DNA from: Dehalococcoidia bacterium
Lineage (GTDB): Bacteria; Chloroflexota; Dehalococcoidia; Bin125
Reading direction: 5' to 3'
Length of the DNA stretch: 64,000 nucleotides
Assembly (NCBI GenBank): GCA_022825265.1
Contig: JAJDXE010000004.1
Span: forward strand, 42,343 to 106,342
Shown here: in pieces, positions 29,363 through 57,857 of the stretch
Position numbering within the stretch: the first letter of the stretch is position 1
How the letters are laid out: each line of letters opens with the position of its first letter
Program-made: the position numbers and the translations under genes
Notes under the pieces: generated by a model
Databases searched by the model: none
What the model was told of the DNA's origin: nothing
What the model saw: only the letters and a program-made list of their open reading frames with translations

Positions 29363-29422
29363 CGCAGGCCTCCCAAGCTGATTCTGTTCATCGGATTGGC
29401 TGGAGGGTAATGCTCCACAGGC

Positions 29423-31681: not shown

Positions 31682-31834
31682 CGGATGTTTCCCTTCCGCC
31701 TGTCGGCGCTGAGAGTGGTCGGCTGAGGAGGCGCCGTCGATGTCGGGGTCAGGCTAGGGCCGATGAACGGTCGGGCGATCCGGTGCGGCGAGCCTCATCG
31801 TCGTCTCAAACTCGCTATATTTCGCGAATACGAA

Positions 31835-31848
31835 CCGTTCCATGGAAC
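31835..31848. promoter_or_regulatory. Perfect 14-bp palindrome (cgttccatggaacg) 16 nt upstream of the SBP start, next to a ttcgcgaa palindrome at 31820-31827. Candidate operator.
   Basis: Read directly from sequence. It sits between a TATATT -10-like box at 31815 and the RBS. Confidence 0.3.
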
Positions 31849-31863
31849 GAAGGATGGAGCACG

Positions 31864-33786: not shown

Positions 33787-33815
33787 CAGGAGTTCAACAG
33801 CGCCGTCGGATGATC

Positions 33816-33845
33816 AACCGCTCCCCCCAAACGGGGGGAGCGGTT
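33816..33845. repeat. Perfect 13-bp-stem hairpin (aaccgctcccccc-aaac-ggggggagcggtt) between the SBP and permease genes. This is a REP-family unit and a probable intra-operon attenuator.
   Basis: Direct read. It shares the CTCCCCCC/GGGGGGAG core with the other copies. Confidence 0.55.
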
Positions 33846-33865
33846 TCGAAGGAGTCTGATCGACG

Positions 33866-34801
33866 ATGCGTAGCGAACTCGGAGCGACCGCCTTCGGACG
33901 GCTGCTGCGGTCGATCGCGGTCGTGCTCGGTGTGGTCTCGATCGTTTTTTTCTTGAGCCGCGGCGCCGGCGATCCGGTGTCGCGGCTTGCGCCGATCGAC
34001 GCCACTCAACAGGAGATTGAAGAAGCGAAGGAGCGCTACGGGCTCAACGACCCGATGATCGAGCAGTACGGTCGCTTCCTCTGGGACATTGTGCGGCTGG
34101 AGTTTGGACAGTCCTTCCGCGCGACGCGGCCGGCGACTGATGTGGTCGGCGAGCGGTTGGTGGCAACGATCCAGCTCGGCGCGGCCGGACTGCTCGTCGC
34201 GTTCCTGATTGGCATTCCGTTAGGGATCGTGGCCGCCGTGCGTCGCGGCGGCGCGACCGACATCTTCAGCAGGATCGGCGCCCTGTTTGGTCAGGCGGTG
34301 CCCAACTTCTGGCTGGGCCTGATGTTGATCCTCTTTGTCGCGCTGTACATCGACTGGATACCGACGGGCGGCCGCACGACACCGCAGAGCATCATCTTGC
34401 CGGCTATCACGCTGGGATCGTTCCCGGCGGCGGCGGTGATGCGATTTACCCGTTCGGCGATGCTCGACACGCTGCAGCAGGACTACATCCGCACCGCTCG
34501 GGCTAAGGGTCTGAGCGAGCGCGCCGTGTTGTTCAAGCACGCCTTGCGCAACTCAATGCTCGCTGTGATCACGTTGCTTGGGCTGCAGGTCGGCAACATC
34601 CTCTCCGGCGCGATCATCGTCGAGACCGTCTTCGCCTGGCCCGGCCTCGGTCAGTTGATCATTCAGTCGATCGTGGCGACCGACTATCCGGTCGTACAGG
34701 CCTCGGTATTGCTGACGTCAGTCTGGATCGTGTTCATCAATCTCGTGGTTGATGTGTCCTACACGTTTATCGATCCGCGCATTCGAACGGGAGCGATCTG
34801 A
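33866..34801 (+). CDS. ABC transporter permease (DppB/OppB-like).
   Basis: 311 aa with six TM helices and the EAA-like loop ...ARAKGLSERAVLFKHALRNS. Confidence 0.85.
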   Translation: MRSELGATAFGRLLRSIAVVLGVVSIVFFLSRGAGDPVSRLAPIDATQQEIEEAKERYGLNDPMIEQYGRFLWDIVRLEFGQSFRATRPATDVVGERLVATIQLGAAGLLVAFLIGIPLGIVAAVRRGGATDIFSRIGALFGQAVPNFWLGLMLILFVALYIDWIPTGGRTTPQSIILPAITLGSFPAAAVMRFTRSAMLDTLQQDYIRTARAKGLSERAVLFKHALRNSMLAVITLLGLQVGNILSGAIIVETVFAWPGLGQLIIQSIVATDYPVVQASVLLTSVWIVFINLVVDVSYTFIDPRIRTGAI

Positions 34802-34804
34802 CCC

Positions 34805-35710
34805 GTGGCCGAGTCGCCAGCCCCCGCCCAGGCAGTTGAGGATCCGTTCGCCAGACAGCGGCGCAACTGGCGCGTCCGTTCGCCGAAGACGCTGATCGCC
34901 ACCTTCTCGATTCTCTTGCTGTTCGTCGTATTGGGCATCTTTGGATCGCAGATCGCGCCCGAGGATCCGTTCAAGCTCAACCTCGTCGGCCGGCTGCAGC
35001 CGCCCTTCTTCGAGGCGGAGGGCAGCCTCGATCATCCGCTCGGCACCGACGATCTGGGCCGCGACACGCTGAGCCGTCTGATTTACGGCGCCAGGATCTC
35101 GTTGCTGGCGATCGTGATGGTGATCCCGCTGGCGACCGTGATCGGTTCCATCCTCGGCATCCTGGCGGGCTGGTTTGGAGGTTGGACGAGCCGTGTGATC
35201 ATGGCGCTCGTCGATCTCCAGTTGGCGATGCCAGCGATCCTGATTGCGGTCTTTCTGCGCGCGATCTGGGAACCGAGCCTGAGCAACGTGGTGATCGTGC
35301 TGGTCTTCGCCTTGTGGGCAACGTTCGCCCGCCTGGTGCGAGGCGAGACGCTGGGCCTGAAAGAGCGAGAGTTTGTCATAGCGGCGCGCACGATCGGCGC
35401 CAACGACCTGCGGATCATGGTGCGCCACGTGCTGCCCAGCTTGGTCAACTCGATCGTCATCCTGGCGACGCTGAACGTCGCCACGGTGGTCATCGCCGAA
35501 GCCGGGCTGAGCTTCCTCGGCGTCGGGATTCCGCAGGACTCGATCTCCTGGGGCATCATGATCTCACAGGGGCGCGGTGTGATTGTGACCGCGTGGTGGC
35601 TGGTCACGGTGCCGGGGATCGCGATTATCGTGGTCTCGTTGGTCGTCAACCTGTTCGGCGACTGGCTGCGGGACTTCCTGGACCCCCAACTACGGAACAT
35701 CCAGAGATAG
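34805..35710 (+). CDS. ABC transporter permease (DppC/OppC-like).
   Basis: 301 aa with N-terminal TM helices and ...AARTIGANDLRIMVRHVLP. Confidence 0.85.
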   Translation: MAESPAPAQAVEDPFARQRRNWRVRSPKTLIATFSILLLFVVLGIFGSQIAPEDPFKLNLVGRLQPPFFEAEGSLDHPLGTDDLGRDTLSRLIYGARISLLAIVMVIPLATVIGSILGILAGWFGGWTSRVIMALVDLQLAMPAILIAVFLRAIWEPSLSNVVIVLVFALWATFARLVRGETLGLKEREFVIAARTIGANDLRIMVRHVLPSLVNSIVILATLNVATVVIAEAGLSFLGVGIPQDSISWGIMISQGRGVIVTAWWLVTVPGIAIIVVSLVVNLFGDWLRDFLDPQLRNIQR

Positions 35711-35737: not shown

Positions 35738-37300
35738 ATGAGCTGGCAGTCCGAACTGGACGAGATGGAGCGGCGGGCGGACCTCGCTCGGCAGATGGGT
35801 GGCCCCGACAGCGTCGCCTTCCACCACGGACGCGGCAAACTGACGGTCCGTGAGCGGATCGATCTGCTGACCGACCCGGGCGAATTCCAGGAGACCGGCG
35901 TGCTGGCCGGGAATCCCGAGTGGGACGGCAACGAACTGACCGGCCTGACGCCGGCCAACTCGGTCGTCGGTGTGGCCCGGATCAACGGTCGCAAGGTGGC
36001 GGTGCAAGGCGACGATTTCACTATCCGTGGAGGCTCGGCCGACGGCATGATCGGGACCAAGGGCGGCTGGGCCCAGCGCCATGCCTACATGAACCGGATT
36101 CCCTACGTGCGACTGCTCGATGCGACCGGCGGCAGCGTCAAGCACTTCGAGCAGCTCGGCCGCACGTACGTCGTCGGACCGGAGGTCGGCGGCGGCACGG
36201 GCGTCGACGACCTGCTCTGGTACATGCCGGTCGTCAACGTGGTGCTGGGCTCCGTGGCCGGCGCGCCGGCTGTGATCGCAGCCGACGGCCACTTCAACGT
36301 GATGGTCAAAGGCACGAGCCAGCTCTTTGTCGGCGGACCGCCGGTGGTCAAAGCCAGCCGCGGGTTGGAGATCTCCAAGGAGGAACTCGGCGGCGAAGAT
36401 GTCCACGTCTACGGCAACGGTGTGGTCCAGAACCTCGCCGAGACCGAGGCGGAGGCAATGGCGCAGGCGCGCAGATTCCTGAGCTATCTGCCCCAGAACG
36501 TCTGGGAAATGCCTCCACGCACTGAACCGACGGACGATCCCGATCGACGTGAGGAGCGCCTGCTGTCGGTGATCCCGCGCAACATGCGGCGGATCTACAA
36601 CGCGCGCAAGATCCTCGACTGGGTGTTGGACAAGGACTCGTTCTTCGAGATTCAACCGCACTGGGGCAAGTCGCGGATTACGGGCCTGGCCCGGGTCGAC
36701 GGCTATCCGGTTGGAGTGATGATCAACAACCCGCGCGAGAACGGCGGCTCACCGAACAAGGCGACGTCGGAGAAGATCATGCGCATGATCTCGCTATGCG
36801 ACAACTTCCACCTGCCGTTGATCTACTTCTGCGACGAACCGGGATTCTCGGTCGGCCCGGCCGACGAGCAGTCCGGCATCATCCGCACCGGCGCCCGGCT
36901 GATGCTGACCAGCCGGCTCTCGCAGATGCCGTATCTGGTGTTCATCACGCGTCAGGCTTACGGGGTCGCGGGTGGACTGCAGTACCGACGAGGCAACGCG
37001 CTCTATCGGCGCTACGCCTGGCCCTCGGCCCACTGGGGATCGATGCACATCGAAGGCGGAGTGACCGCCGCTTACCGCCGAGAGATCCGCGAAGCCGATG
37101 ACCCAGAGGCGAAGCGTCTGGAGATTGAGGGGCGGCTGAACGAGATCCGCTCACCGTTGCGGACAGCGCACGCGTTTGGCATCGAGGACATGATCGATCC
37201 GCGAGATACGCGTCCGCTGATGGTCGAGTTTGTTCGCGACGCGCAGTCATACATCCAGCAACATCTCGGTCCGACGGCGCGAATTCCATATCTGCCCTGA
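35738..37300 (+). CDS. Carboxyltransferase-family protein (acyl-CoA carboxylase beta / decarboxylase alpha-like), stand-alone.
   Basis: 520 aa. Paralogous to 6043..7611 (…LTVRERIDLLTDPGEFQETG…). No biotin carboxylase or BCCP gene is nearby. Confidence 0.8.
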   Translation: MSWQSELDEMERRADLARQMGGPDSVAFHHGRGKLTVRERIDLLTDPGEFQETGVLAGNPEWDGNELTGLTPANSVVGVARINGRKVAVQGDDFTIRGGSADGMIGTKGGWAQRHAYMNRIPYVRLLDATGGSVKHFEQLGRTYVVGPEVGGGTGVDDLLWYMPVVNVVLGSVAGAPAVIAADGHFNVMVKGTSQLFVGGPPVVKASRGLEISKEELGGEDVHVYGNGVVQNLAETEAEAMAQARRFLSYLPQNVWEMPPRTEPTDDPDRREERLLSVIPRNMRRIYNARKILDWVLDKDSFFEIQPHWGKSRITGLARVDGYPVGVMINNPRENGGSPNKATSEKIMRMISLCDNFHLPLIYFCDEPGFSVGPADEQSGIIRTGARLMLTSRLSQMPYLVFITRQAYGVAGGLQYRRGNALYRRYAWPSAHWGSMHIEGGVTAAYRREIREADDPEAKRLEIEGRLNEIRSPLRTAHAFGIEDMIDPRDTRPLMVEFVRDAQSYIQQHLGPTARIPYLP

Positions 37301-37305
37301 AGACG

Positions 37306-38553
37306 TCAGAACGGTGGGGCCTTGTGCGACTCCACCTCCGCGATCGCCGACTCTTCGTAGCCGAGCTCTGACATTAGTTCCGCAGTGTGCTCACCCAGGT
37401 CGGAGAACATGTTCTTGGCCGTTCCCGGAGTCCGGCTCAGACGGGTTGGAATGCCCGCGACCCGGCGTCGGCCGACGTGGGGGATGTCCTTCTCGACGAT
37501 GTATCCGTTGACCAGCGCCTGCTCGTCGTCGAGGACCTCTTCGTAGCTCTGGACGCGCTGGGCCGTCGCGCCGTCTGGGTGGATGTCGAAGAACTCCTGC
37601 CACTCGTCGGAAGTGCGTGTCTTCATCATCTCGGCGACGTACGGACGGACATCCTTGACACGGTCCATCGCGTCCTGGTCGCGAAACGGATCGCGTCCCT
37701 CGCGGTGGTTCCAGCGCGGGTCGTCGGCCAGCTCCGGGTTGCCGCCGTGTTCGCAGAACTCGCGCCAGGTTTCGTCCTCGCGAATGCCCATGCAGAAGGC
37801 GACGCCGTCGGACGCTTCGTAGATCCCGGTCATCGCCGAGACGATGGGATGAAACGCGCCGTCGCGAGTGGGTAGATGGCCCGTTGCCGAAGTGTGGTTG
37901 ATCTCCCAGGCCTGCATCCAGATCATCGCGCCGTAGGAGGAGGTCTGAACTTTCTGGCCGAGGCCGTCGCGCTGGCGCGCGACCAGCGCGGTGAGGATGC
38001 CCATTGCGAGCGCCATCGCGCCGCCGGTATCGGCGATGATCGCGCCGGGGATGAGCTGTGGGTCGTCGGGCGTGCCGGTGACGCCGGCAATGCCGCTGCG
38101 CGCCTGCGAGTACTGATCGCTCATCCGGTTCTCGCGGGCCGGTCCATCCGGTCCGAAGCCATTGGCGGTGGCGTAGACGAGGCCGGGATTGCGAGCGGAG
38201 AGGCGCTCGTAGCCCATGCCGATGCGTTCGAGCGCAGGTTCGCGGAAGTTGCTCAGGAAGACGTCGGCGCTGTCGACTAGCTTGTCCACCAGCTCCAGCC
38301 CGATCTCGGTGTGGATGTCGACGCAGACCGAGCGCTTGCCGTGCGACGCGCCGATGAACTGCGTCCCGACCGACTCCGGCGGCAGCTCGTTGTTCGCTCC
38401 GCGATACCAGCGGTTGGCGTCGCCCATCGGCGGCTCGACCTTGATCACGTCCGCCCCCATGTCCGAGAGGAAGCCGCCCGCTGCCGGTCCCTGCACTGCG
38501 ATCGATAGCTCAACGACCCGGATGCCTTCGAGCGCTTCCATCTGATCCTCCAA
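37306..38553 (-). CDS. Family-III CoA-transferase (CaiB/BaiF), single domain.
   Basis: 415 aa. N-terminus LEGIRVVELSIAVQGPAAGGFLSDMGADVIKVEPP. Confidence 0.8.
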   Translation of the reverse strand: MEDQMEALEGIRVVELSIAVQGPAAGGFLSDMGADVIKVEPPMGDANRWYRGANNELPPESVGTQFIGASHGKRSVCVDIHTEIGLELVDKLVDSADVFLSNFREPALERIGMGYERLSARNPGLVYATANGFGPDGPARENRMSDQYSQARSGIAGVTGTPDDPQLIPGAIIADTGGAMALAMGILTALVARQRDGLGQKVQTSSYGAMIWMQAWEINHTSATGHLPTRDGAFHPIVSAMTGIYEASDGVAFCMGIREDETWREFCEHGGNPELADDPRWNHREGRDPFRDQDAMDRVKDVRPYVAEMMKTRTSDEWQEFFDIHPDGATAQRVQSYEEVLDDEQALVNGYIVEKDIPHVGRRRVAGIPTRLSRTPGTAKNMFSDLGEHTAELMSELGYEESAIAEVESHKAPPF

Positions 38554-38584
38554 ACCCTGATCGGTCCGACCGCACGAGGCTAGT

Positions 38585-41023
38585 ATGCCAACGCGTGCTC
38601 CCGTGTTGGATGTTGTTGTTTCCAGAGGTGGATTCGTGAACTTGCCGCTACACGATGTCCGAGTGCTTGACCTGTCCGATCATCGGGCAGCTCTCGGCAG
38701 CAGGATGCTGGCCGACCTCGGCGCCGAGGTCACGATGGTGGAGCCGCCGGGCGGGAGTTCGATTCGGCATCTCGCGCCGTTCGTCGACGATCAGCCGTCG
38801 CTCGACGGCAGCTACCAGCATCTCTACTTCAACGTCAACAAGCGCTCCGTCGTGCTCGACTGGCGAACCAGAGAGGACATGGAGCGACTGCTCGAACTGG
38901 TTCAGGCGGCCGACATCCTGATCGAATCGAACCAGCCGGGCGAGTTTCCGGTCGCCCAGGTTCGCGCGGCGAATCCGCATCTAATCGTTGTCTCGGCGAC
39001 GCCGTACGGGTCCCGCGGTCCAAGATCCAGCTGGCGCGCAACCGACCTGACAACCACGGCCGCCGGCGGACTGCTGCAGATCAGCGGCGAGCGCGACGAT
39101 CCACCGGTGCACGGCGCGGCGTTTCCCGGTCACACGATGACCGGACTGACCATCGCCTCATCGGCGATGACGGCGCTGCACGGTCGTGATCGGACACCCG
39201 GTCAGCCCGGGTGCCAGATCGATATCTCAATGCAGGAGGCGACCTCTCTGCAGGTCGTCCAGACATCCAATCCCAACATCTGGCGCTGGCGTGGGGAGGC
39301 GCCGTATCGGCCGGCGCTCTCGCAGGTGATTCGCTGCGCCGACGATCGGTGGATGGCCTGTAACATCTCGCCGAACCGGCTGCCCGAGTTCATCGCCATG
39401 CTGGACGAAGCCGGCGTCGAGCACCATCTCGATCCCGACAACTGGGAAGTCATCCATCGCGGCGACCGCGCGGCCTGGCAGTACCTCGAGAATCCGCTGC
39501 AAGACCTGGCCAAGGACCTGGCTGCCGTCTGGCCGCGACAGCAGCTGCTGACCCGACTCTGGGAAGCCGGCATGCCTGCCATGCCCACGCTGCGCTTCAG
39601 CGAGTTCGCCGAGACTGAGCACTATCCAAGCTCAGGTCAGTTCATTGATGTCGAGACACCGGCAGTCCGCAAGTCGTTGAGCTACTCGCGCAGCCCGCTC
39701 GATCCGGTGCAGTCGCCGCTGCCGATGCGGCCTGCCCCACAGCTCGGAGCCCACGACCACGAGTCTGACACGGTGAGGGGTGAACGCTCTACGGAGCCGC
39801 CGGGCAAGTTCCCCGACATGCCGTTGGCGGGCATTCGCGTCCTCGACCTGACCTGGGTTGCCGCTGGTCCGCTCACAACCCGGCTAATGGCCAACTTCGG
39901 CGCCGAGGTGATCAAAGTCGAGTCCAGCGGCGAGCGCATGGATCCGCTGCGGGTACAGCCGGTCAACGGCGAGTTCAACTTCGACCTTCCGGACCTGTAC
40001 AACGAGGCCAACACGGGCAAGAAGTCGCTGACGCTCAACCTGGCCGATGAGCGAGGCAAGCAAGTGCTTCGGGAACTCGTGGCTCGCTGCGACGTGATGG
40101 TCAACAACTACTCGGCCGGTTCGCTGGCTCGTATGGGATTCCCCTGGGAGGAACTGCGGCAAATCAACCCGCGTCTGATCAGCGTCCACCTGCCCGGCGT
40201 CGGCGGCGATAGCCCCTGGCGGCCGCTGCGCACGCTGGGCAATCTGCTCAAGGCGGCGGCGGGGATGAACTTCCAGATGGGCTATCCGCATCAGCCGCCG
40301 CGAGGCATGGGGGTCGCGTATCCCGACTTCACGACGCCACACGTCGGGGTGACGGCGATCCTGTCGGCGCTGCGCGCGCTCGAAGAGATGGGTGAGGGCC
40401 GAGAGATCGAACTGAGCCAGCTCAGCGCGACGGTTGCCTTGCTCGGCGCGCAGTGGATGCAGTTCGATCAACTCGGCGAGGACCTGCCGCGAATCGGTAA
40501 CCGCGATCCAAACATGTGCCCGCATGGCGTGTTTCCCTCGCAGGGAGACGACCAGTGGGTCGCGATCGCAATGGAGTCCGACGGCCAGTGGCCGGCATTC
40601 GCGACGGCGATTCGCCGTCCAGACTGGGCGGAGCAGTCGGAACTTCAGTCGTTGTCCGGCAGGCAGGCTTGCGAGGATGAGATTGAAGCTGCGATCGCTC
40701 AGTGGACTAGCGAGCTCAGCAAGTGGGACGCCGCCGAGCAGATGCAAGCGGTGGGCATCGCCGCCAACGCGGTCGAGGACCTGCGCGACATGATGGATAT
40801 CGACGAGCACTTCCGCGATCACTACCAGCGGGTCGAGCAGCCCTCGCATCCTGGCTTCGGCATCTGGGTTGATCGACCGCCGTGGGAATTCGCCCATCTG
40901 GAACCGCGAGTGATCGAGCGCTCGCCGATGCTGGGCGAGCACAACGAAGAGATCCTGAGCGGGTTGCTCGGCAAGACCGGGGATGAGATCGCCGAGCTGA
41001 TCGCGGCTGGTGTCGTCGGTTGA
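38585..41023 (+). CDS. Duplicated-domain family-III CoA-transferase (two CaiB/BaiF modules in one 812 aa chain).
   Basis: Module 1 begins LPLHDVRVLDLSDHRAALGSRMLADLGAEVTMVEPP. Module 2 begins MPLAGIRVLDLTWVAAGPLTTRLMANFGAEVIKVES. A ~60 aa linker separates them. Confidence 0.7.
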   Translation: MPTRAPVLDVVVSRGGFVNLPLHDVRVLDLSDHRAALGSRMLADLGAEVTMVEPPGGSSIRHLAPFVDDQPSLDGSYQHLYFNVNKRSVVLDWRTREDMERLLELVQAADILIESNQPGEFPVAQVRAANPHLIVVSATPYGSRGPRSSWRATDLTTTAAGGLLQISGERDDPPVHGAAFPGHTMTGLTIASSAMTALHGRDRTPGQPGCQIDISMQEATSLQVVQTSNPNIWRWRGEAPYRPALSQVIRCADDRWMACNISPNRLPEFIAMLDEAGVEHHLDPDNWEVIHRGDRAAWQYLENPLQDLAKDLAAVWPRQQLLTRLWEAGMPAMPTLRFSEFAETEHYPSSGQFIDVETPAVRKSLSYSRSPLDPVQSPLPMRPAPQLGAHDHESDTVRGERSTEPPGKFPDMPLAGIRVLDLTWVAAGPLTTRLMANFGAEVIKVESSGERMDPLRVQPVNGEFNFDLPDLYNEANTGKKSLTLNLADERGKQVLRELVARCDVMVNNYSAGSLARMGFPWEELRQINPRLISVHLPGVGGDSPWRPLRTLGNLLKAAAGMNFQMGYPHQPPRGMGVAYPDFTTPHVGVTAILSALRALEEMGEGREIELSQLSATVALLGAQWMQFDQLGEDLPRIGNRDPNMCPHGVFPSQGDDQWVAIAMESDGQWPAFATAIRRPDWAEQSELQSLSGRQACEDEIEAAIAQWTSELSKWDAAEQMQAVGIAANAVEDLRDMMDIDEHFRDHYQRVEQPSHPGFGIWVDRPPWEFAHLEPRVIERSPMLGEHNEEILSGLLGKTGDEIAELIAAGVVG

Positions 41024-41055
41024 GCCGAGCGGCTACCCATCGATAGGGAGACTCC

Positions 41056-42018
41056 ATGCCGAAGTACGTGATGTTGCCGCCGATCGACGATGACATCCGC
41101 GAGTGGGCTCAGCGGATGCGCGAAGAGATTCCGGGCTTGGATGTCGTGGTTGTGGAAGATGAGACGGACGGTCCGCAGGAATTGGCCGACGCGGACGGCG
41201 CCTACGGCTGGGTTCCGCCCGAGGTGCTGCCCAATGTCGAGCGGTTGCGACTGTTGCAGAATCCGTTCGCCGGACCACCGGTGGGCTGGTACTACCCGGA
41301 GCTGGCTGAACATTCCGTGACGGTCAGCAATCCCCGAGGTATCTATTCCGACCACATCGCCCACCACATCATGATGTACATGCTCGCGCTCTCGCGCGGG
41401 CTGCCCTACTACTCGGCCGCGCAGGCCGAGGGTCGCTGGGACACGCGGGCTCGCAAACACGGATACGTCGACCTGACCGAGTCGACCGTGCTGATCAACG
41501 GCATTGGCGGGATCGGTTCGGAGGCCGCGCGCTTGTGTTCGGCGTTTGGTTGCCGAGTGATCGGCGTCGATCCAAGTCCGTACGGTGAGTTCGAAGGTGA
41601 CCTCGTTCCGCCGTCGGAGCTTGACGCCCGCCTGCCCGAGGCCGACTTCGTCGTCACCACGGTTCCACACACGCCCGAGACCGAGTTCATGTGGAACGCC
41701 GACCGCTTCGCAGCGATGAAGGACACGGCATACTTCATCAACATCGGCCGTGGCATGACCTGCAAACTCGATGACCTGGTCGCTGCCCTCGACGACGGTG
41801 AGATCGCCGGGGCAGGCCTGGACGTGTACGAGATCGAGCCGCTGCCCGAGGGCCATCCGCTCTGGCAGATGGAGAACGTGATCCTGACGCCGCACATCGC
41901 GGTCGCCAACGCAGTGAACATCCCCGAGCGACGCTTTGAGTTGATTCTTGAGAACGCGCGGCGGCTCGTTGAGGGTCGCGATTTCGTTAACGTCGTCGAC
42001 AAGGAGAAGTGGTACTAG
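41056..42018 (+). CDS. D-isomer-specific 2-hydroxyacid dehydrogenase family protein.
   Basis: NAD-binding GIGGIGSEAARLCSAFGCRVIGVD and the catalytic R/E/H arrangement. Confidence 0.8.
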   Translation: MPKYVMLPPIDDDIREWAQRMREEIPGLDVVVVEDETDGPQELADADGAYGWVPPEVLPNVERLRLLQNPFAGPPVGWYYPELAEHSVTVSNPRGIYSDHIAHHIMMYMLALSRGLPYYSAAQAEGRWDTRARKHGYVDLTESTVLINGIGGIGSEAARLCSAFGCRVIGVDPSPYGEFEGDLVPPSELDARLPEADFVVTTVPHTPETEFMWNADRFAAMKDTAYFINIGRGMTCKLDDLVAALDDGEIAGAGLDVYEIEPLPEGHPLWQMENVILTPHIAVANAVNIPERRFELILENARRLVEGRDFVNVVDKEKWY

Positions 42019-42054
42019 AGCCACTGGCCGGAATGTTGGAGATCGGGGCCCGTC

Positions 42055-43107
42055 ATGAAGATCGTGGAAATGTACGGCGATTCGCGCGTGGGAGTGGTCG
42101 AAGCCCCTGAACCTGAGCCGCGCGACAACTGGGTCGTGGTCAAGGTGATTGCGAGCACGATCTGCGGCACCGAGGCGCGAACCTACCAGTACGGCGACAG
42201 CACGTTCAACTCGCACTCCTACAACTCTGGCCATGAGGCCGCCGGGATCGTCTGGAAGGCCGGGCCGACGGCCAAGATTGCCGAGGGAACCAGAGTCGCG
42301 TTGATTGCGCACATGGGCGAGCAGTGCAATCAGTGCTTCTACTGCTACCAGGGCCTCTGGCTGCTGTGCACGAACCTGACCGAGGGCGGCGAGGAGTACC
42401 TGGGCACGCACGCGCAGTACATTATCCGGCCCGACAGTCACTGCATCCCGATGCCCGATGACGTGCCGTTTGAAATCGGCTCGATCCTGGTCGACGCCGT
42501 CGGCACGCCCTACCGCGCGATCCGCCGGCTGGACGTGAATGGATTCGACACGGTGCTGATCACCGGTCTGGGTCCGCTGGGGGCGTCGGCGGCGATCATT
42601 TGTGAGAAGCTCGGCGCCCGCGTGATCGCGAGCGAACCTGCCGAGTATCGCCGCAGCCTGGCTCGCGAGTACGGGGTCGACGTCGCGATTGATCCCATGT
42701 CGGAAGACGCGCTGGAACGGGTGATGGATCTCACTGATGGCCGCGGGCCCGACGTCGCGCTGGACTTCACCGGCTACACCGAGCCGCAGATGCTCTGCGT
42801 CGACTCGGTCAGGGTCGGCGGACGGGTCGGCTTCATCGGTCTCAAGTACGACGAGACGCCGGACGGTCCGGTACCGCGACCGACACCGGTGACCGTCGCC
42901 GGTCATTTGCTGCCCAAGGAACTGACCCTGATCGGAAGCTGGAGCGTCGCACCGCACGAGATGTTGGAGTTGTACGAGCTGGTCCAGAAGGGTCTACCGG
43001 TCGAGAAGCTGATCACGCACCGGTTCAGCATCGACGAGGCGCAGGAGGCGTACGAGACGGCATTCAATCAGCGCGGCTGCAAGGTGATCATCGATCCGTG
43101 GGCATGA
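42055..43107 (+). CDS. Zinc-dependent medium-chain alcohol dehydrogenase (threonine/sorbitol-DH-like).
   Basis: GHEAAGIV zinc ligand region, structural-zinc Cys cluster CNQCFYCYQGLWLLC, and GLGPLG NAD motif. Confidence 0.8.
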   Translation: MKIVEMYGDSRVGVVEAPEPEPRDNWVVVKVIASTICGTEARTYQYGDSTFNSHSYNSGHEAAGIVWKAGPTAKIAEGTRVALIAHMGEQCNQCFYCYQGLWLLCTNLTEGGEEYLGTHAQYIIRPDSHCIPMPDDVPFEIGSILVDAVGTPYRAIRRLDVNGFDTVLITGLGPLGASAAIICEKLGARVIASEPAEYRRSLAREYGVDVAIDPMSEDALERVMDLTDGRGPDVALDFTGYTEPQMLCVDSVRVGGRVGFIGLKYDETPDGPVPRPTPVTVAGHLLPKELTLIGSWSVAPHEMLELYELVQKGLPVEKLITHRFSIDEAQEAYETAFNQRGCKVIIDPWA

Positions 43108-43116
43108 TGGAAACGC

Positions 43117-45633
43117 CTAGCGAATCACCTCGTCGACGAGCAACTGGGTGAACTCTTCCTCGCTCAGGCCGAGTTCCTGCCGATAGACCTGCTCGTTGTG
43201 CTCTCCGAAGAAGGGCGCACGGCGGATCGGCAAACGCTCCCCGTTCCAGAGGAACGGCTGGTTCTGAGCCATGAATCTGATTCCGACCGGGTGATCGAAC
43301 TCGTGGAAGAAGCCCTGCATCGACGGATCGGTGTCAACCAGGTCCTCAATGTCTTCGTTCGGTCCAGCCGGTACCCCGACCGCTTCGAATGAGGCAGTCG
43401 CCTGCCACACGCCCTGTCCGCAGGTCCACGCTGTGATCGCTGCCTCGATCTCGTCCTCAGCGGCCTTGCGCCCAGCCAGCGTGCGCAGATCGTCGCGCGA
43501 AGCCAGGTCGTCGCGACCAATCACACGGCAGATCTCCAGCCAGTCGACCGTGTTCCGCGCCGACAGCGCCAACCAGCGATCATCCCCTGCGCAGCGGAAC
43601 AGTCCGTGCGGAGACATCTCAGGCGAGCGATTGCCGCGTCTTGGCGACAACTCACCGTTGGCAAGCTGCTCGATCAGCTCCGTGTCGAGCAGGTGGATGC
43701 CAGCCTCGTACTGAGGAATCTCGATCTCCTGCCCGACCCCGGTGCGATCACGCTGGATCAGCGCCGAAATGATCGCCGTCACCGCCAGCGGGCCGAGCGT
43801 AAAATCGGTATGCAGCAACACACCGGTCGGCTTGCGGTCGGCAGCGCCGGTGTGGGCGGCCAGTCCGCAAAGCGCGACCACGCTATTCCCGATCCCCTTC
43901 CACGACGCCTTCGGACCCCAGGTCCCCATCACCGGCAGGCTGCACACAACGATCCGAGGATTGATCTTCTTCAGGTCTTCAAACCCCAGCCCCAATCGCT
44001 TCATCACGCCGCCCGTGAAGTTGTCGGTTACGACATCCGACTCGCGGATCAGGTCGTAGGCAACCCGAAGTCCGTCGGGCGCGCCGAGGTTGAGATTGAT
44101 GCTGCGCTTGTCGGTGTTGCAGTCCTGGAAAAACGCGCCGGTCTCAATCGTCGGCGGATCATGCGCAGGCAGCGCCACGCGAAGCGTGTCGATCCGGGCG
44201 TCGGACTCAACCTTGATCACATCCGCGCCGAGGTTGGCCATCAGCTCCGTCGTCAAGGGCCCCGCCGCCTGCCAGCAGAAGTCGATGACGCGAATCCCCT
44301 TGAGCGGCAGGCTGTCTCGATGGGCTGAGGACCTAGGCCGCGATCCATTTGCTCCCCCCTCTGGGGGGAGCTGTCGCGAAGCGACTGAGGGGGGTCCCGC
44401 CGCCGCTGCGGTACGGCGATTCGATCCCGCAACCAACCCACTGCCAACCAAATCGTCATATTCCGCAGAATCCAGACCAAGCAACTCCGACAGCACATTC
44501 CACGTATCCGCGCCCAACACCGGCGCCGGCCGGCCGACCGGCTCATAGCCGGTCGAGTGGATCGGCAGGCGCGGGAGATCGATCTCCCGCTCGAACTGAG
44601 GATGCTCAACCGAGAGGAATGCCCCTCGCTCATGTAGATGCGAGTCCTCGATGATGTCGCGGGCTGAGTTCACCGGCACGGCCAGGAACCCCCGGGACTG
44701 ACCCTCGTAGCACAGCTCCTCCCGATCCACCGAGGCGCAGGCTCGCTGAAACGCCTGGTGAGTCTCGCCGCCCCACTCCGGGATGTAGATGTCGCCCGGA
44801 TACTCCGCTCCGATGATTCCGTCGTAGCCCGCCCGCTCATACAGCCACTGTCCGAAGGCCGCCCAGCGTTCGTGCGTGTTCGGAGTAATCCCGAACGTCA
44901 GCCACCGACCGTCCCTGGCCTGCAACAGCGAAGAAATATCGCCCCCCGGACGAAACGCCTTCTCGCCCATCTGCCGCCACATGTTCTCGTTGGCGAAATG
45001 GATCGTGGTCGAGAGAATCGCTTCCTGCAGCGAGATGTACGCATGACTCGCGCGGACGCCGTTGCGCCGGTCGTAGAGCATCGCCACGCCGGTCGCCGCC
45101 GCGACCTGGCTGGCCTGCTTGTAAGCCAGCTTGCCCGCCGGATAGTCGGGCGCGACCTCAGGAAAACCCAGGCCCTCCATCAGACCACCGGCGGCGACGC
45201 CGACAATGTCAGACGCTGGCAGTCCCTCGCCGCCGCGCCGCGTCACCACGTCAATCACGCCCAGGTGCGGATGCACGCGCTGCAACCGTTCGCGGTCATA
45301 GAAGCGGCGCACGTCTGCATTCTTGTCCAACGGCGCGAGCACAACATCGGCGGCATCAAGCAGCCGATCGATCAGATCCCAAGCCCCCGGAGCATCGAAG
45401 TTCAGCGCCAGGCTGCGCTTGCCTGCGTTGTAGAGCAGATGCCGCAGCCCGCTCTCAATATCCGTCCCGTCGTCCAGATGCGGCCCGTTGATTCGCAGCG
45501 CGTCGCCCGTTGTTGCTTCAACCCGGATCACATCCGCGCCGAAGTCCGACAGCCAGCGAGCGCCCAGCGCCAGGCACTCGTCGCTCAGGTCGATCACGAC
45601 CGAGCTCGCCAGCGGAAGATCGGATAGCGCCAT
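43117..45633 (-). CDS. Duplicated-domain family-III CoA-transferase (838 aa), paralog of 38585..41023. A REP element is embedded in its inter-domain linker.
   Basis: Module 1 begins VVIDLSDECLALGARWLSDFGADVIRVEA. Module 2 begins LPLKGIRVIDFCWQAAGPLTTELMANLGADVIKVES. The linker ...AAAAGPPSVASRQLPPEGGANG... is encoded by the repeat at 44349-44400. Confidence 0.7.
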   Translation of the reverse strand: MALSDLPLASSVVIDLSDECLALGARWLSDFGADVIRVEATTGDALRINGPHLDDGTDIESGLRHLLYNAGKRSLALNFDAPGAWDLIDRLLDAADVVLAPLDKNADVRRFYDRERLQRVHPHLGVIDVVTRRGGEGLPASDIVGVAAGGLMEGLGFPEVAPDYPAGKLAYKQASQVAAATGVAMLYDRRNGVRASHAYISLQEAILSTTIHFANENMWRQMGEKAFRPGGDISSLLQARDGRWLTFGITPNTHERWAAFGQWLYERAGYDGIIGAEYPGDIYIPEWGGETHQAFQRACASVDREELCYEGQSRGFLAVPVNSARDIIEDSHLHERGAFLSVEHPQFEREIDLPRLPIHSTGYEPVGRPAPVLGADTWNVLSELLGLDSAEYDDLVGSGLVAGSNRRTAAAAGPPSVASRQLPPEGGANGSRPRSSAHRDSLPLKGIRVIDFCWQAAGPLTTELMANLGADVIKVESDARIDTLRVALPAHDPPTIETGAFFQDCNTDKRSINLNLGAPDGLRVAYDLIRESDVVTDNFTGGVMKRLGLGFEDLKKINPRIVVCSLPVMGTWGPKASWKGIGNSVVALCGLAAHTGAADRKPTGVLLHTDFTLGPLAVTAIISALIQRDRTGVGQEIEIPQYEAGIHLLDTELIEQLANGELSPRRGNRSPEMSPHGLFRCAGDDRWLALSARNTVDWLEICRVIGRDDLASRDDLRTLAGRKAAEDEIEAAITAWTCGQGVWQATASFEAVGVPAGPNEDIEDLVDTDPSMQGFFHEFDHPVGIRFMAQNQPFLWNGERLPIRRAPFFGEHNEQVYRQELGLSEEEFTQLLVDEVIR
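44349..44400. repeat. REP-family palindromic unit (gctcccccc-tct-ggggggagc ... gaggggggtcccgc) located inside a coding region.
   Basis: Direct read. It is homologous to the intergenic copy at 49211-49285 and is translated in-frame on the minus strand. Confidence 0.55.
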
Positions 45634-46406
45634 CAGCCCAGAGTAGATTCGTACGGGTGTTGGCGATACAGATCGCTCATCCGGTGAGTGATCAGCTGCA
45701 TCCGCAGGTCGTCATCGAGATGCGGCCACAGCGACCGATTCATCGATTCCTTGACCACGCCGAAGTAGCCGTGCCGCTCCCGCCCCATCGCCGCCAGACG
45801 GTTGGCCAGCTCATCCACTTCCTCGCGCAGCTTGCCCGGCTCGGCCACGCTGGTCACGAGACCCAGCTCCGCCGCCTCCGTCCCCGAAATGAACCGATCG
45901 TCGAGGATTAGCCGCGTCGCCTGCTTGAGCCCGACGTACTTGGGCAGAAACGCCGTCGCCGGGATCACCATCCGCAACTTCGCGTCCGGATCCGCGATCG
46001 CGTAGTCCGAGGCCAGCATCAAATCGAACCCCGAGCCCATGCAATAGCCCTGCACCTGCGCGATCACCATCTGCGGAATCCGCCGGAGCAGCGACTGCAT
46101 CCGAAAGTACGGATGCCGCTCCAGGTTGAACGCGGCGATGTGCGGAGCGTGATACGGGTTCTTCCACGGGTAGTCGGGAATCGATCCGTCCCCGCCCTCC
46201 GACACGTCATCGCCCGAGCAGAAGGAGCGTCCCTCACCAGCCAGCACCAGAACCTGAACCGCCGGGTCGCGCCCGACCCGGTTGATGACCTCGATCATCG
46301 CGTCGCCGACCTCGGTGTTGATCGCATTGTGTCGCTCAGGTCGGTTGATCGTCAGCCGGGTGATCGGCCCCTCCTCAACAATGAGTTCGCTGTGTTCGTT
46401 GGACAT
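45633..46406 (-). CDS. Enoyl-CoA hydratase/isomerase family protein.
   Basis: 257 aa. …LTINRPERHNAINTEV… and QGYCMGSGFDLMLASD are crotonase motifs. Confidence 0.8.
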   Translation of the reverse strand: MSNEHSELIVEEGPITRLTINRPERHNAINTEVGDAMIEVINRVGRDPAVQVLVLAGEGRSFCSGDDVSEGGDGSIPDYPWKNPYHAPHIAAFNLERHPYFRMQSLLRRIPQMVIAQVQGYCMGSGFDLMLASDYAIADPDAKLRMVIPATAFLPKYVGLKQATRLILDDRFISGTEAAELGLVTSVAEPGKLREEVDELANRLAAMGRERHGYFGVVKESMNRSLWPHLDDDLRMQLITHRMSDLYRQHPYESTLG

Positions 46407-46585: not shown

Positions 46586-47995
46586 ATGTCGGAAACGCTG
46601 GAGATCGCCCAGATGGCGCACTTGATGCGGCGGGCTGGGTTTGGCGCGTCGCGCGATGAGCTGGAGCGGCTCGTCGAGCAGGGTTACGAAGAGACGGTCG
46701 AGCAGTTGGTCGACCCGCCCGCGGAGATCCCGCGCGCCGACCTGTATCAACTATTCCGCTACATGCCGTCGCTGGAGACCGGTGGTCCGGTGACTGTCCC
46801 CGGGGCGGCCAACTGGCTCTACCACCTGGTCAACACGCAGCGGCCGCTGGAAGAGAAGATGGCGCTGTTCTGGCACGGCATCTTCGCGGTGGGCAACTCC
46901 AAGGTCGACAACGACAATCACCTGACCGCGATGGTCGACATGTTCCGCGATCACGGAACCGGCAACTATCGCGACCTGCTCATCATGCTGGCCCAGAGCC
47001 CGGCGATGATTTACTGGCTCGACAACCACGAGAACCACAAGCGCTCGCCCAACGAGAACTGGGGCCGCGAGTTGTTGGAGCTGTTCTCGATGGGGGTCGG
47101 CAACTACACGGAGAAGGACGTCTTCGAGTGCGCCCGCGCCTTCACCGGCTGGACGCTGGGTCCGAAGATCCCGCGCGTGCCCAACCACCGCTTCTTCTTC
47201 CAGTTCGAGTTCCGCCCCGAGGAGCACGACTTCGGCGAGAAAGAGTTCCTCGGCCGCACGGGCAACTTCGACGGCCTCGACATCATCGACATCATCCTCG
47301 AGGAAGACGCCTGCCCGCGCTTCATCGCGCGCCATCTGTACACGTTCTTCGTCGCCGACGAGCCGCAGGTGCCGGCCTGGGACATCGAACCACCGAAGGA
47401 TCCCGAGGCGATCGACTATCTCGCCGGCGTGTTGAAGGACTCGAGCTACGAAATCAAGCCGGTCCTGCGCGCTCTGTTCAACTCGGACTTCTTCAAAGAA
47501 GCCACCTTCCAGAAGGTTAAGAGTCCGGTCGAGACCGTGGTCTCGACGCTGCGCTTGACCGAGGACCTGTTTGGTCCTCAGCCGGCCCTGATCGAGCTGG
47601 GTCAGGAATCAGCGCACATGGGCCAGAGCCTGCACAATCCGCCTTCGGTTGAAGGCTGGTCAACGGGCCCAAACTGGATCAACTCCGGCGCCGTGGTCGG
47701 ACGGATCAACTTCGTCGCCGACCGGGTGAGCAACACCGAGTTGCCCGGCGTGCAGAAGATCTGCCAGCGCGTCGCCGCGTCGAACGGCGCGAAGATGACG
47801 CCGAACGAGATGGTTGACCATTGCCTCGACCTGTTCGGTCCGCTCGACGTGGCCGAGGCCACGCGGCTGGAACTGATCGAGCACGCGTCAGAAGGCGGCG
47901 AGCTGTCCTGGAACGAGGACTACGACGGTTCCTCGGAGCGCGTCGGCGAGATGCTTGCGCTGATCGCGGCGACGACGGAGTACCAGTTCGGCTAA
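46586..47995 (+). CDS. DUF1800-domain protein.
   Basis: The N-terminal hallmark MRRAGFGAS is present. 469 aa with no signal peptide. Confidence 0.7.
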   Translation: MSETLEIAQMAHLMRRAGFGASRDELERLVEQGYEETVEQLVDPPAEIPRADLYQLFRYMPSLETGGPVTVPGAANWLYHLVNTQRPLEEKMALFWHGIFAVGNSKVDNDNHLTAMVDMFRDHGTGNYRDLLIMLAQSPAMIYWLDNHENHKRSPNENWGRELLELFSMGVGNYTEKDVFECARAFTGWTLGPKIPRVPNHRFFFQFEFRPEEHDFGEKEFLGRTGNFDGLDIIDIILEEDACPRFIARHLYTFFVADEPQVPAWDIEPPKDPEAIDYLAGVLKDSSYEIKPVLRALFNSDFFKEATFQKVKSPVETVVSTLRLTEDLFGPQPALIELGQESAHMGQSLHNPPSVEGWSTGPNWINSGAVVGRINFVADRVSNTELPGVQKICQRVAASNGAKMTPNEMVDHCLDLFGPLDVAEATRLELIEHASEGGELSWNEDYDGSSERVGEMLALIAATTEYQFG

Positions 47996-48041
47996 GAGAG
48001 CACCAACGATCGCACAGGAGCAGCACAGAGAGACCCCAGCC

Positions 48042-57855: not shown

Positions 57856-57857
57856 CC

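Follow-up and report, generated by a model that had tools for sequence, protein, structure and literature searches.

A Dehalococcoidia gene cluster with a proposed role in organic-acid import and CoA-ester processing, including two fused family-III CoA-transferases and a stand-alone carboxyltransferase

Dissociated biotin-dependent acyl-CoA carboxylases, composed of three separate proteins, are known from crenarchaea (AccC/AccB/PccB) and from Bacillus (YngH/YngHB/YngE). Sets of biotin carboxylase (BC), mini-BCCP and carboxyltransferase (CT) are also annotated in Cupriavidus, Diaphorobacter and Variovorax, where they are uncharacterized. In another group of systems, GctAB with GcdA of Acidaminococcus, Frc with Oxc and MdcA with MdcD/E, a CoA (or ACP) transferase stands beside a carboxyl-handling enzyme, which in the Gcd and Mdc systems has the CT fold. 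The family-III CoA-transferase BbsEF is heteromeric, its subunits BbsE and BbsF being separate polypeptides, one catalytic and one non-catalytic; Asp178 of chain B forms the CoA adduct (9fol), and chain A has a Tyr at that position. In a further class, to which DddD and PtmU4 belong, one chain of ~800 aa holds two tandem CaiB/BaiF domains; the linker between them is poorly conserved, and the catalytic Asp is confined to the C-terminal one (PMC6006322). For SAR202 genomes an expansion of CaiB/BaiF proteins that includes DddD-like members has been described (Landry et al. 2017, PMC5395668); that study handles the family in bulk, and neither the fused heterodimer-like architecture nor a link to a CT is resolved there. 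SAR202/Dehalococcoidia bacteria are thought to oxidize recalcitrant marine organic matter, and family-III CoA-transferases are among their most expanded enzyme families, with substrates known for almost none.

The window, the whole 64-kb stretch of DNA that we analyzed, contains a genuine cluster for organic-acid import and CoA-ester processing in a Dehalococcoidia-type bacterium (Table 1). Third-position GC is high (0.78-0.86) in all 10 cluster genes, which are real ORFs with strong Pfam matches. The gene set named by an earlier, sequence-only reading of this DNA was recovered in full at the coordinates given there, and the interpretation attached to it holds in part. The oddest parts, the double-length CoA-transferases and the lone CT, are of kinds already known, and nothing at this locus overturns current knowledge. 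None of the cluster enzymes reaches a curated NCBIfam equivalog cut-off, and consequently a substrate is assigned to none of them; the undescribed CoA-dependent route proposed by the sequence-only reading is therefore not supported.

Table 1. Cluster genes and related features of the 64-kb window, numbered from its first nucleotide
Feature	Position	Strand	Pfam evidence
SBP_bac_5, family-5 solute-binding lipoprotein (SBP), ABC importer	31783-33786	+	PF00496 5.2e-62
ABC permease, DppB/NikB-like	33866-34801	+	PF00528 (BPD_transp_1) 8.4e-45
ABC permease, DppC/NikC-like	34805-35710	+	PF00528 (BPD_transp_1) 1.2e-25
CT1, single-chain carboxyltransferase, PCC-beta/MmdA fold, 520 aa	35738-37300	+	PF01039 3.2e-86
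CoAT1, one-domain family-III CoA-transferase, 415 aa	37306-38553	-	PF02515 (CoA_transf_3) 1.6e-94, full length
Two-domain family-III CoA-transferase, 812-aa ORF	38585-41023	+	two PF02515 stretches
HADH, D-isomer-specific 2-hydroxyacid dehydrogenase	41056-42018	+	PF02826 (2-Hacid_dh_C) 6.9e-56
ZnADH, Zn-dependent medium-chain dehydrogenase, threonine/polyol dehydrogenase type	42055-43107	+	PF08240 + PF00107
Second two-domain family-III CoA-transferase, 838 aa	43117-45633	-	two PF02515 stretches
Crotonase-fold protein, ECH_1	45633-46406	-	PF00378 1.5e-29
CT2, second stand-alone carboxyltransferase, ~28 kb upstream	6043-7611	-	PF01039 9.9e-99
Second ATPase-less importer	54813-58760		Pfam scan

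Against PF02515 (gathering cut-off 23.3), the 812-aa protein scores 492 bits over two stretches, the 838-aa protein 435 bits over two stretches, and CoAT1 317 bits. The double-domain architecture seen in the sequence-only reading is thereby confirmed, and hundreds of ~800-aa homologs across phyla rule out mis-assembly of neighboring genes, or a frameshift, as the origin of the long genes. The modules within each chain share only 24-32% identity, so each chain is an ancient fusion rather than a recent tandem duplication; the two long proteins are 31-33% identical to each other. For the 812-aa ORF the likely start codon is GTG 38636 (codon 18): this is where homologs begin, and the AF2 model shows residues 1-17 as disordered. 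Its N-module (~residues 18-392) and C-module (412-812) are separated by a linker (~393-411) whose alignment columns vary in length and sequence. The catalytic Asp, at the position of Frc D169 and BbsF D178, is present in the C-module as Asp581 (40325-40327) and absent from the N-module, where His183 (39131-39133) takes its place; in an alignment of 22 homologs Asp581 never varies, and position 183 is occupied by H, Y or F but by D in none of them. The 838-aa protein has the same arrangement, with Tyr171 (45121-45123) in the N-module, a linker of ~55 aa and Asp610 (43804-43806) in the C-module, and one-domain CoAT1 retains its Asp175 (38029-38031). By description, length, tandem domains, variable linker and C-terminal-only Asp match the DddD and PtmU4 class, and the architecture is not new, the class being widespread and already in the literature (PMC6006322). 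The genomic context differs: this window has neither a DMSP-catabolic nor a thioacid cassette, and Pfam scans detected no BCCT transporter, dddB or dddC in the window.

The best match in both sequence and fold is BbsEF. In PDB searches the N-terminal halves of the two long proteins match 9fn0_A and the C-terminal halves 9fn0_B, the latter at 3.9e-64 for the 838-aa protein. The AF2 model of the 812-aa protein (pLDDT 86, pTM 0.91) has a Foldseek TM of 0.91 to the B/D chains of BbsEF. Its pTM implies that the two modules are placed confidently with respect to each other, and both superpose on chains of BbsEF; Asp581 aligns with the adduct-forming Asp178, and the N-module of the 838-aa protein shares the Tyr of chain A. 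BbsEF and the long proteins both pair one catalytic with one non-catalytic module, although the counterparts here are fused and only 22-30% identical. From the predicted structure it is very likely that each long protein forms a compact pseudo-dimer within its own chain. To this extent the covalent pseudo-dimer anticipated by the sequence-only reading holds, but it is not a symmetric pseudo-homodimer, as no catalytic Asp is left in the N-module, and the accompanying premise that family-III CoA-transferases are obligate homodimers fails with the heteromeric BbsEF as best structural relative. The fused chain instead mimics a heterodimer with a single active site. Many relatives encode the same two modules as separate adjoining genes, and most of the 35 split pairs examined combine an Asp-bearing with an Asp-less gene, either of which may come first. 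Both long proteins sit in Chloroflexota-rich clades without a characterized member, the 838-aa protein heading its own Chloroflexota clade of 830-860 aa proteins; a tblastn search with it against plasmids returned only matches with the generic annotation "CoA transferase." The bbs-type beta-oxidation genes (acyl-CoA dehydrogenase, SDR, thiolase/OB-fold; BbsG, BbsH, BbsCD, BbsAB) do not adjoin the cluster in the window. A bbs-type beta-oxidation gene set is carried by L004, one of the compared loci.

CT1 contains a complete two-lobed Carboxyl_trans domain (PF01039 over residues 29-496 of 520, 290 bits) and the subfamily motifs GSVAGxPAV and RQAYGVAGG. Like the CT of dissociated carboxylases it is a single ~520-aa chain of PCC-beta fold; its best PDB relatives are PCC-beta chains (~1e-76), with the Sulfolobus PccB-type 1x0u among the best matches, and GcdA is distant (E 1e-20). 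It scores 303.5 bits against the mmdA model TIGR01117, below the equivalog cut-off of 998.8. Two oxyanion-hole positions depart from canonical PCC-beta, AGG being replaced by AGA/AGL and YGGA by YGVA. The G-to-V change in YGGA was considered as a sign of lost biotin binding and discarded as non-diagnostic, because CT2, which is 43% identical to CT1 (BLASTP), also deviates there. Bona fide MCC-beta likewise deviates at this position. CT2 might function together with the cluster or apart from it; in L002 and L173, CT2-type genes lie beside 812-type and CoAT1-type genes.

The sequence-only reading had noted that CT1 has no biotin partner and took this to indicate a decarboxylase. The first part stands: no BC or biotinyl domain was detected in the 64 kb by Pfam scans of most ORFs or by six-frame motif and phmmer scans, and close relatives L001, L002, L003, L005 and L173 have neither BC nor biotin carrier. 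The second part is weakened by homologous CTs that adjoin ~75-aa carriers and, in cultured Betaproteobacteria, a separate BC as well. Within the CT1 subfamily, BC is adjacent in none of 80 metagenomic loci, and about 8 of the 80 carry a ~75-aa Biotin_lipoyl carrier, in four cases directly downstream of the CT. L137 has the order SBP-permease-permease-CT-biotin carrier, with a CT 56% identical to CT1, and L139 is a compact, self-contained operon of CT, two-domain CoA-transferase and carrier without BC. In cultured Betaproteobacteria, CTs ~45% identical to CT1 share their operons with a carrier of 70-73 aa, a BC encoded on its own, a CoA-transferase and an SBP: the order is SBP-CoAT-carrier-CT-BC in Cupriavidus sp. 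P-10 and SBP-CoAT-CT-BC-BCCP in Diaphorobacter, and in Variovorax BCCP and BC lie 6 kb from SBP-CoAT-CT. In Cupriavidus EM10 and C. phytorum an ORF 1170-1308 aa long, which contains a BC motif and shows homology to CT, lies between the CT and a two-domain CoA-transferase. A biotin-independent, MdcD/E-like CT had been considered and was dropped once the small carriers turned up beside homologs. The best reading of these sequences is that CT1 would supply the CT of an acyl-CoA carboxylase of the dissociated, biotin-dependent type, whose partners are encoded outside the window; its ATP dependence is inferred only from homologs ~45% identical in another phylum, and the BC-bearing loci point toward carboxylation rather than decarboxylation. 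Unlike the described dissociated carboxylases, the window and its Chloroflexota relatives have no BC or carrier linked to the CT, and the oxyanion-hole motifs of CT1 are altered. The CoA-transferase/decarboxylase pairs differ in turn, for a membrane beta subunit, an ACP and a TPP enzyme are all missing from this window. No OAD_beta was found in the window, L001-L005, L173 or L174, and the window contains neither the OAD_beta nor the carrier subunit of a Na+-translocating Mmd/Gcd decarboxylase; OAD subunits occur near a CT1 homolog only in L085-87. In the library searched, no publication dealt with the structure of BbsEF or with modules that join CT and CoA-transferase.

CT1 starts 27 bp past the permease gene and is therefore probably co-transcribed with the importer. 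The SBP has a Tat-type signal (SRRSLL), an LVGC lipobox and a long Q/E-rich linker, as read from its sequence, and its true start is probably an internal Met at about residue 28. It scores far under every NCBIfam equivalog cut-off, and the first permease falls just short of Opp2B (339 bits, cut-off 350). The Opp/Dpp-type set is incomplete in the window, with a family-5 SBP and two permeases but not the two ATPases: Pfam scans of the called ORFs, excluding three short ones of 111-163 aa, found no ABC_tran in the 64 kb, in agreement with the ATPase-less importer described by the sequence-only reading. The same layout is found in L001, L173 and L174 and at the second importer of the window.

CoAT1, convergent with CT1, is under all NCBIfam equivalog cut-offs and has orthologs at the same position in L001 (78% identity) and L173 (73%); in L005 a 411-aa CoA-transferase ORF occupies that position. 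HADH begins 32 bp downstream of the 812 gene, and among solved structures it is nearest to phenylpyruvate reductase 8hpg and to the Haloferax D-2-hydroxyacid dehydrogenase 5mh5; orthologs with 72-87% identity lie beside 812-type genes in L001/L005 and beside the crotonase-838 pair in L171. ZnADH retains catalytic Zn ligands C37/H60/E61 and a structural Zn site C91/C94/C97/C105 by sequence reading, and its best PDB relatives are L-threonine 3-dehydrogenases (4e-39). The protein that had been called an enoyl-CoA hydratase does belong to the crotonase family, but the hydratase name serves only as a family label; in an alignment with canonical crotonases, Asp stands in for the first of the two catalytic Glu residues, and the site of the second is deleted. 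Its stop overlaps the 838 gene start by 1 nt, and L171 has an overlapping crotonase-then-two-domain-CoAT pair as well (86% and 69% identical, respectively). We rejected a 3-hydroxypropionate/acrylate route, in which the transferase would be DddD-like, the crotonase a 3-HP-CoA dehydratase, ZnADH an acryloyl-CoA reductase and the CT a PCC, because the zinc sites of the threonine/polyol dehydrogenase-like ZnADH are complete and the crotonase lacks the canonical Glu pair. The window contains one more HADH and one more crotonase by Pfam scan.

Conserved synteny of the cluster core, the property by which the sequence-only reading would set the locus apart from an ordinary one, is borne out. The order SBP-permease-permease-CT1-CoAT1(-)-812-type is kept in L005 (83% identity), L001 (73%) and L173 (57%), with HADH following the core in L005 and L001, and CT genes accompany 812-clade CoA-transferases in L002, L003 and L174. 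The cluster is not a rigid unit: ZnADH, present in L005 at 90% identity, is missing from L001 together with the 838 gene, the crotonase is gone from L005, and crotonase-838-HADH stands by itself in L171. Synteny at 73-83% identity also runs on into clearly unrelated flanks, ECH/hydrolase genes upstream and DUF1800/DUF1501/NHL downstream, and part of it may be plain genome collinearity.

We propose that four small transcription units in this SAR202-like member of the Chloroflexota would handle an acid as its CoA thioester, with no ATP spent on activation. Taken as a whole, the following scheme has in our judgment an even chance of being correct. The sequences themselves show the domain content, the Asp status, the fold, the conserved gene order and the partners that homologous CTs have in other loci, and from these we infer the direction of carboxyl transfer, the CoA donor, the substrate and the service of all four units in one pathway. 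The Tat-exported lipoprotein and two permeases would import the acid, powered by ATPases from elsewhere. The three family-III CoA-transferases would move CoA onto carboxylates from a donor thioester, which might be succinyl-CoA or a product of the pathway; CoAT1 is the ordinary one-domain enzyme among them, and the two long proteins would be single-chain BbsE/BbsF-type heterodimers, in which the Asp-less N-module acts as structural partner to the C-module with its sole active-site Asp. HADH and ZnADH, the latter as a secondary-alcohol dehydrogenase, would convert hydroxy groups of the substrate to oxo groups and back. The crotonase, which is non-canonical and whose translation is coupled to that of the 838-aa transferase, would act on the acyl-CoA product of this transferase. 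Carboxyl transfer would be carried out by CT1 within a dissociated acyl-CoA carboxylase (separate BC, ~75-aa carrier, CT) whose BC and carrier are encoded outside the window.

The four units may not form a single pathway at all. We consider it somewhat unlikely that they are two to four independent operons brought together by chance in a genome crowded with CoA-transferase, dehydrogenase and importer paralogs, with a synteny that is mostly collinearity among related Dehalococcoidia. The unrelated genes on both sides of the syntenic block in L001, the loss or independence of the ZnADH-838 and crotonase genes in L001, L005 and L171, the second ATPase-less importer, CT, HADH and crotonase of the window, and the paralog expansions for which SAR202 is known (PMC5395668) are all consistent with such a juxtaposition. 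It is opposed by the recurrence of CT, CoA-transferase and SBP across phyla with different CoA-transferase clades, by the 27-bp spacing of permease and CT1 in an order that returns in L137, and by the HADH orthologs that accompany both two-domain CoA-transferases. One or both two-domain proteins might do more than simple CoA transfer, as do both of the only characterized two-domain members (PMC6006322); DddD is the best Swiss-Prot match of some SAR202 transferases (PMC5395668), and the 838-aa gene is coupled to an atypical crotonase. We regard this as very improbable, for the Asp nucleophile and overall fold are kept, the closest solved relative, BbsEF, is a bona fide transferase, and the window has no DMSP-type transporter, dddB/dddC-like genes or acyl-CoA synthetase/sulfur-carrier cassette.

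It is doubtful, too, that CT1 works without ATP, either as a BC-less biotin decarboxylase or as an acyl-CoA:acyl-CoA transcarboxylase formed by CT1-type and CT2-type proteins and a mini-carrier. With the CoA-transferases it would then run a CoA-recycling decarboxylation cycle for dicarboxylic acids, analogous to Frc/Oxc, GctAB/GcdA and malonate decarboxylase, which is essentially the earlier idea. CT-fold decarboxylases such as MdcD/E are known (PMC5534430). The subfamily loci, with carriers in some and BC adjacent in none, the L139 operon, the presence of two different CT clades together in L173 and L174, and marine Pseudomonadales in which CT1-type genes adjoin methylmalonyl-CoA mutase, with an OAD alpha/beta/gamma set close by, would all suit an ATP-free enzyme. 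The stand-alone BC in the operons of cultured homologs speaks against it, as does the absence of a carrier from the window and of OAD_beta from the window and the seven loci searched for it, and no soluble biotin decarboxylase lacking a beta subunit is known. Still wider, and in our opinion also a long shot, is the idea that this CT subfamily, family-III CoA-transferases (often fused and BbsEF-like) and the ~75-aa carrier constitute an uncharacterized cross-phylum module, which in Chloroflexota, where BC is never linked to it, might run ATP-free as a CoA-recycling decarboxylase or a transcarboxylase of CT1-type, CT2-type and carrier proteins, stripping or shuffling the carboxyls of carboxyl-rich dissolved organic matter.

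The repeated linkage of the long proteins with an importer and a particular CT subfamily points to a conserved logic of import, CoA transfer and (de)carboxylation. The same module is carried by cultured Cupriavidus, Variovorax and Diaphorobacter strains, so this logic is testable there, and a single-chain heterodimer with one active site makes an otherwise two-subunit enzyme type easier to express and mutagenize. The surroundings of the cluster are similar to the neighborhoods described for the SAR202 expansion (PMC5395668), with many family-III CoA-transferases, luciferase-like monooxygenases, a sulfatase, dehydrogenases and ABC importers in the window.

The gene cluster is a real feature of the window, although it is only partly what the sequence-only reading took it to be, and the surprise it holds is moderate to low. 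All ten genes are present at the positions given for them, as the dominant high-GC3 open reading frames of their region, and Pfam assigned each of them unambiguously to a family. None of the ten reached a curated NCBIfam equivalog cut-off, and consequently no substrate can be read from them. Gene spacing suggests four transcription units: the solute-binding protein (SBP), the two permeases and CT1 (spaced by 79, 3 and 27 bp); CoAT1 by itself (minus strand); 812, HADH and ZnADH (gaps of 32 and 36 bp); and crotonase followed by 838, with a 1-nt overlap. In line with the sequence-only reading of the importer and the carboxyltransferase (CT), no ABC ATPase, biotin carboxylase (BC) or biotinyl domain was found in the 64 kb by six-frame motif and phmmer scans or by Pfam scans of most other open reading frames, three short ones (111-163 aa) being left out.

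Genes of the cluster, with names used in the text
Gene	Positions	Strand	Basis
Family-5 SBP and two permeases	31783-35710	+	Pfam
CT1, carboxyltransferase, 520 aa	35738-37300	+	Pfam
CoAT1, one-domain family-III CoA-transferase	37306-38553	-	Pfam
812, 812-aa protein, two CoA_transf_3 stretches	38585-41023	+	Pfam
HADH, D-2-hydroxyacid dehydrogenase	41056-42018	+	Pfam
ZnADH, Zn-dependent dehydrogenase	42055-43107	+	Pfam
838, 838-aa protein, two CoA_transf_3 stretches	43117-45633	-	Pfam
Crotonase-fold protein	45633-46406	-	Pfam

The proposed Pfam check returned a double match for both double-module genes. They are not assembly artefacts: each belongs to a large family of ~800-860-aa proteins. Fused homologues were seen in Dehalococcoidia, Deltaproteobacteria, Binatia, Entotheonella, Actinomycetota, Cupriavidus and Mycobacterium. 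The architecture has already been described by Dong et al. (PMC6006322), who reported tandem domains with a poorly conserved linker and an Asp that is conserved in the C-terminal one, listed DddD and PtmU4 among the members with a characterised function, and compiled 2401 two-domain sequences; DddD is also the best match of some SAR202 CaiB/BaiF paralogues (Landry et al. 2017, PMC5395668). Both 812 and 838 join a class already known, as new and uncharacterised members; the point added here is what their two halves are.

The sequence-only reading pictured each chain as a covalently duplicated pseudo-dimer. The halves match different chains of the heteromeric benzylsuccinate CoA-transferase BbsEF: the N half of both proteins best resembles chain A, and the C half chain B (E 2.5e-58 for 812 and 3.9e-64 for 838). 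The chain B Asp trapped as a CoA adduct in structure 9fol, D178, aligns with D581 of 812 and D610 of 838; the equivalent N-module position is His183 in 812, Tyr171 in 838 and Tyr in chain A. Across 22 fused homologues (41-88% identical to 812, plus the 838 paralogue at 33%), the C-module always keeps its Asp, and the N-module has H, Y or F at the matching position and in no case Asp. Of 35 adjacent gene pairs encoding one-domain relatives, most combine an Asp-bearing and an Asp-less gene, in either order. Asp status and likeness to chains A and B together indicate that 812 and 838 are single-chain E/F-type heterodimers with one predicted active site each, and not duplicated homodimers. The AlphaFold2 model of 812 (mean pLDDT 86.4, pTM 0.91; low confidence limited to residues 1-17 and short loops) has BbsEF chain B/D as its best structural match (TM 0.91 over the target). 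The fusion is old, because the N and C modules share only 24-32% identity with each other, and 812 and 838 share 27% (N-to-N) and 38% (C-to-C).

Conserved synteny was found for the core of the cluster. The order SBP-permease-permease-CT1-CoAT1(minus strand)-812-type is kept in the Dehalococcoidia MAG locus L005 (83% identity), in L001 (73%) and in L173 (812-type 57%, CT1 83%, CoAT1 73% identical), and HADH comes next in L005 and L001. More distant loci of the 812 clade carry a CT with two CoAT1-type genes (L002, 59%), the order crotonase-CoA-transferase-CT (L003, 48%), or two CoA-transferase-CT sets with an importer and a carrier (L174, 49%). A separate clade of two-domain CoA-transferases (L139, L153, L174a; 28-30% identical to 812) is likewise paired with CTs. 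Given this recurrence across loci and clades, linkage of a CoA-transferase to a CT and an importer is a functional theme that has been conserved. The remaining parts are less tightly held together: L005 has ZnADH-838 and L001 does not, crotonase is missing from L005, and in locus L171 an overlapping crotonase-838 pair stands without the core, together with an HpcH/HpaI aldolase and an orthologue of HADH (77% identity). Synteny with L001 runs partly on into unrelated flanks, and is thus in part genome collinearity. A DUF1800/DUF1501 pair followed by an NHL-repeat/SMP-30-like protein (46586-49199, plus strand) lies beside the cluster in the window, as it does in L001 and L174. Elsewhere, in L004 (2187-12445), a two-domain CoA-transferase 43% identical to 812 lies inside a Bbs-like beta-oxidation set of thiolase with OB-fold/Zn-ribbon protein, crotonase, SDR and MaoC hydratase.

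CT1 is a full-length protein of the PCC-beta/MmdA fold, from a known CT superfamily but a poorly studied subfamily. Its relatives (517-520 aa, 60-93% identical; hosts Dehalococcoidia and marine Gammaproteobacteria) invariably carry GSVAGxPAV and RQAYGVAGG in place of the CAGGA and AYGGAY motifs of canonical PCC-beta. In 80 metagenomic loci of the subfamily, family-III CoA-transferases are the commonest neighbours within two genes of the CT (8 loci); counted over the whole locus, they occur in 13 of the 75 that have a called CT gene. A small Biotin_lipoyl protein with an E(A/S)MKM motif is encoded in 6/80 loci as well as in L163 and L174, four of these genes lying directly 3' of the CT; because such carriers occur in its loci, the subfamily is very probably biotin-dependent. 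L137 has the order SBP-permease-permease-CT-carrier, which is the window arrangement plus a carrier, and L139 is a compact operon of CT, two-domain CoA-transferase and carrier with unrelated genes on either side. A literature search found no description of this recurrent CT-CoA-transferase-carrier module, which is the most interesting lead. Compact operons with a CT1-type CT and a ~75-aa carrier lie at L139 940-5157, L137 2974-4780 and L153 6609-11817, with a two-domain CoA-transferase in L139 and L153; none of the three contains a biotin carboxylase, and they may form a self-contained three-protein system.

In cultured Betaproteobacteria, annotated records place CT1 homologues (~45% identity) in operons with a stand-alone BC. 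The order is SBP-CaiB/BaiF-73-aa carrier-CT-BC, with bioAFDB adjoining, in Cupriavidus sp. P-10, and thiolase/OB-fold-SBP-family-I CoA-transferase-CT-BC-70-aa BCCP-SDR-MaoC in Diaphorobacter sp. HDW4B. Variovorax sp. PBL-E5 has SBP-CoA-transferase-CT, with BCCP and BC at 6 kb distance and a hydroxyacid dehydrogenase nearby; in Cupriavidus sp. EM10 and C. phytorum the CT precedes a 1170-1308-aa open reading frame that shows CT homology and a BC motif, and a two-domain CoA-transferase comes after it. On the most economical reading, CT1 would supply the carboxyltransferase part of a dissociated acyl-CoA carboxylase made of three proteins, whose BC and carrier genes lie apart from it in this genome. 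We keep as a rival that CT1 would act ATP-free, as a decarboxylase or transcarboxylase; a BC motif was found in 0/80 metagenomic loci of the subfamily by a scan that detected BC in control loci L021, L042 and L043. The window holds a second stand-alone CT, CT2 (6043-7611, minus strand; 522 aa, 43% identical to CT1), between genes for an F420H2-dependent quinone reductase and a UbiA prenyltransferase, with no BC or carrier for it in the window; L002 and L173 have CT2-type genes next to two-domain CoA-transferase genes of the 812 type, with CoAT1-type genes present as well. On Pseudomonadales contigs from Tara and other marine sources (L085-L087, region 3958-12658), genes for methylmalonyl-CoA mutase and its B12-binding subunit come directly after a CT1-type gene (64% identical), and an oxaloacetate-decarboxylase-like alpha/beta/gamma set lies upstream on the opposite strand, past an amidase gene; this suggests a methylmalonyl-CoA-type substrate for that branch.

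In the route that is best supported, an imported acid would be activated ATP-free by CoA exchange, its hydroxy and oxo groups would be tailored by redox steps, and a crotonase-type step and carboxyl transfer at the thioester level would belong to the pathway. HADH is closest to phenylpyruvate reductase and a Haloferax D-2-hydroxyacid dehydrogenase, ZnADH (Zn sites complete) is closest to threonine/polyol dehydrogenases, and the crotonase is without the canonical Glu pair. The parts are compatible with a Liu/Atu-like logic, in which a branch is removed by carboxylation, hydration and cleavage, and with a 2-hydroxyacid/CoA-transferase logic as well. Whatever is said of substrate, CoA donor and direction of the CT step, we infer.

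The setting matches the published picture of SAR202, with luciferase-like monooxygenases, a sulfatase and CaiB/BaiF expansion (PMC5395668). The genes immediately preceding the importer, for a sulfatase of 752 aa and two tandem luciferase-like flavin monooxygenases (27222-31681, minus strand), form an insertion relative to syntenic L001. The cluster importer is an ordinary family-5 system without linked ATPases, as is a second one at 54813-58760 (plus strand; SBP and two permeases, without ATPase genes). The first SBP (31783-33786) has a Tat-type signal (SRRSLL) and a lipobox (LVGC), and a low-complexity tether of ~80 residues, rich in Gln and Glu, precedes its SBP_bac_5 domain; in the second (54813-56738) the SBP_bac_5 match likewise starts late, at residue 178. 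Downstream of the second importer come genes for a nucleotidyltransferase, an Amidohydro_2 protein, a further D-2-hydroxyacid dehydrogenase (61445-62464) and a luciferase-like monooxygenase (62545-63798). At 52983-54674 (plus strand), a FAD-dependent tryptophan-halogenase-like protein bears a C-terminal SEC-C zinc-binding motif, an unusual combination. GC skew is strongly positive (~+0.19) at 6-20 kb and -0.1 to -0.17 past ~44 kb; given the cumulative maximum near 42-44 kb, a replication terminus or some other switch of strand bias may lie within the window.
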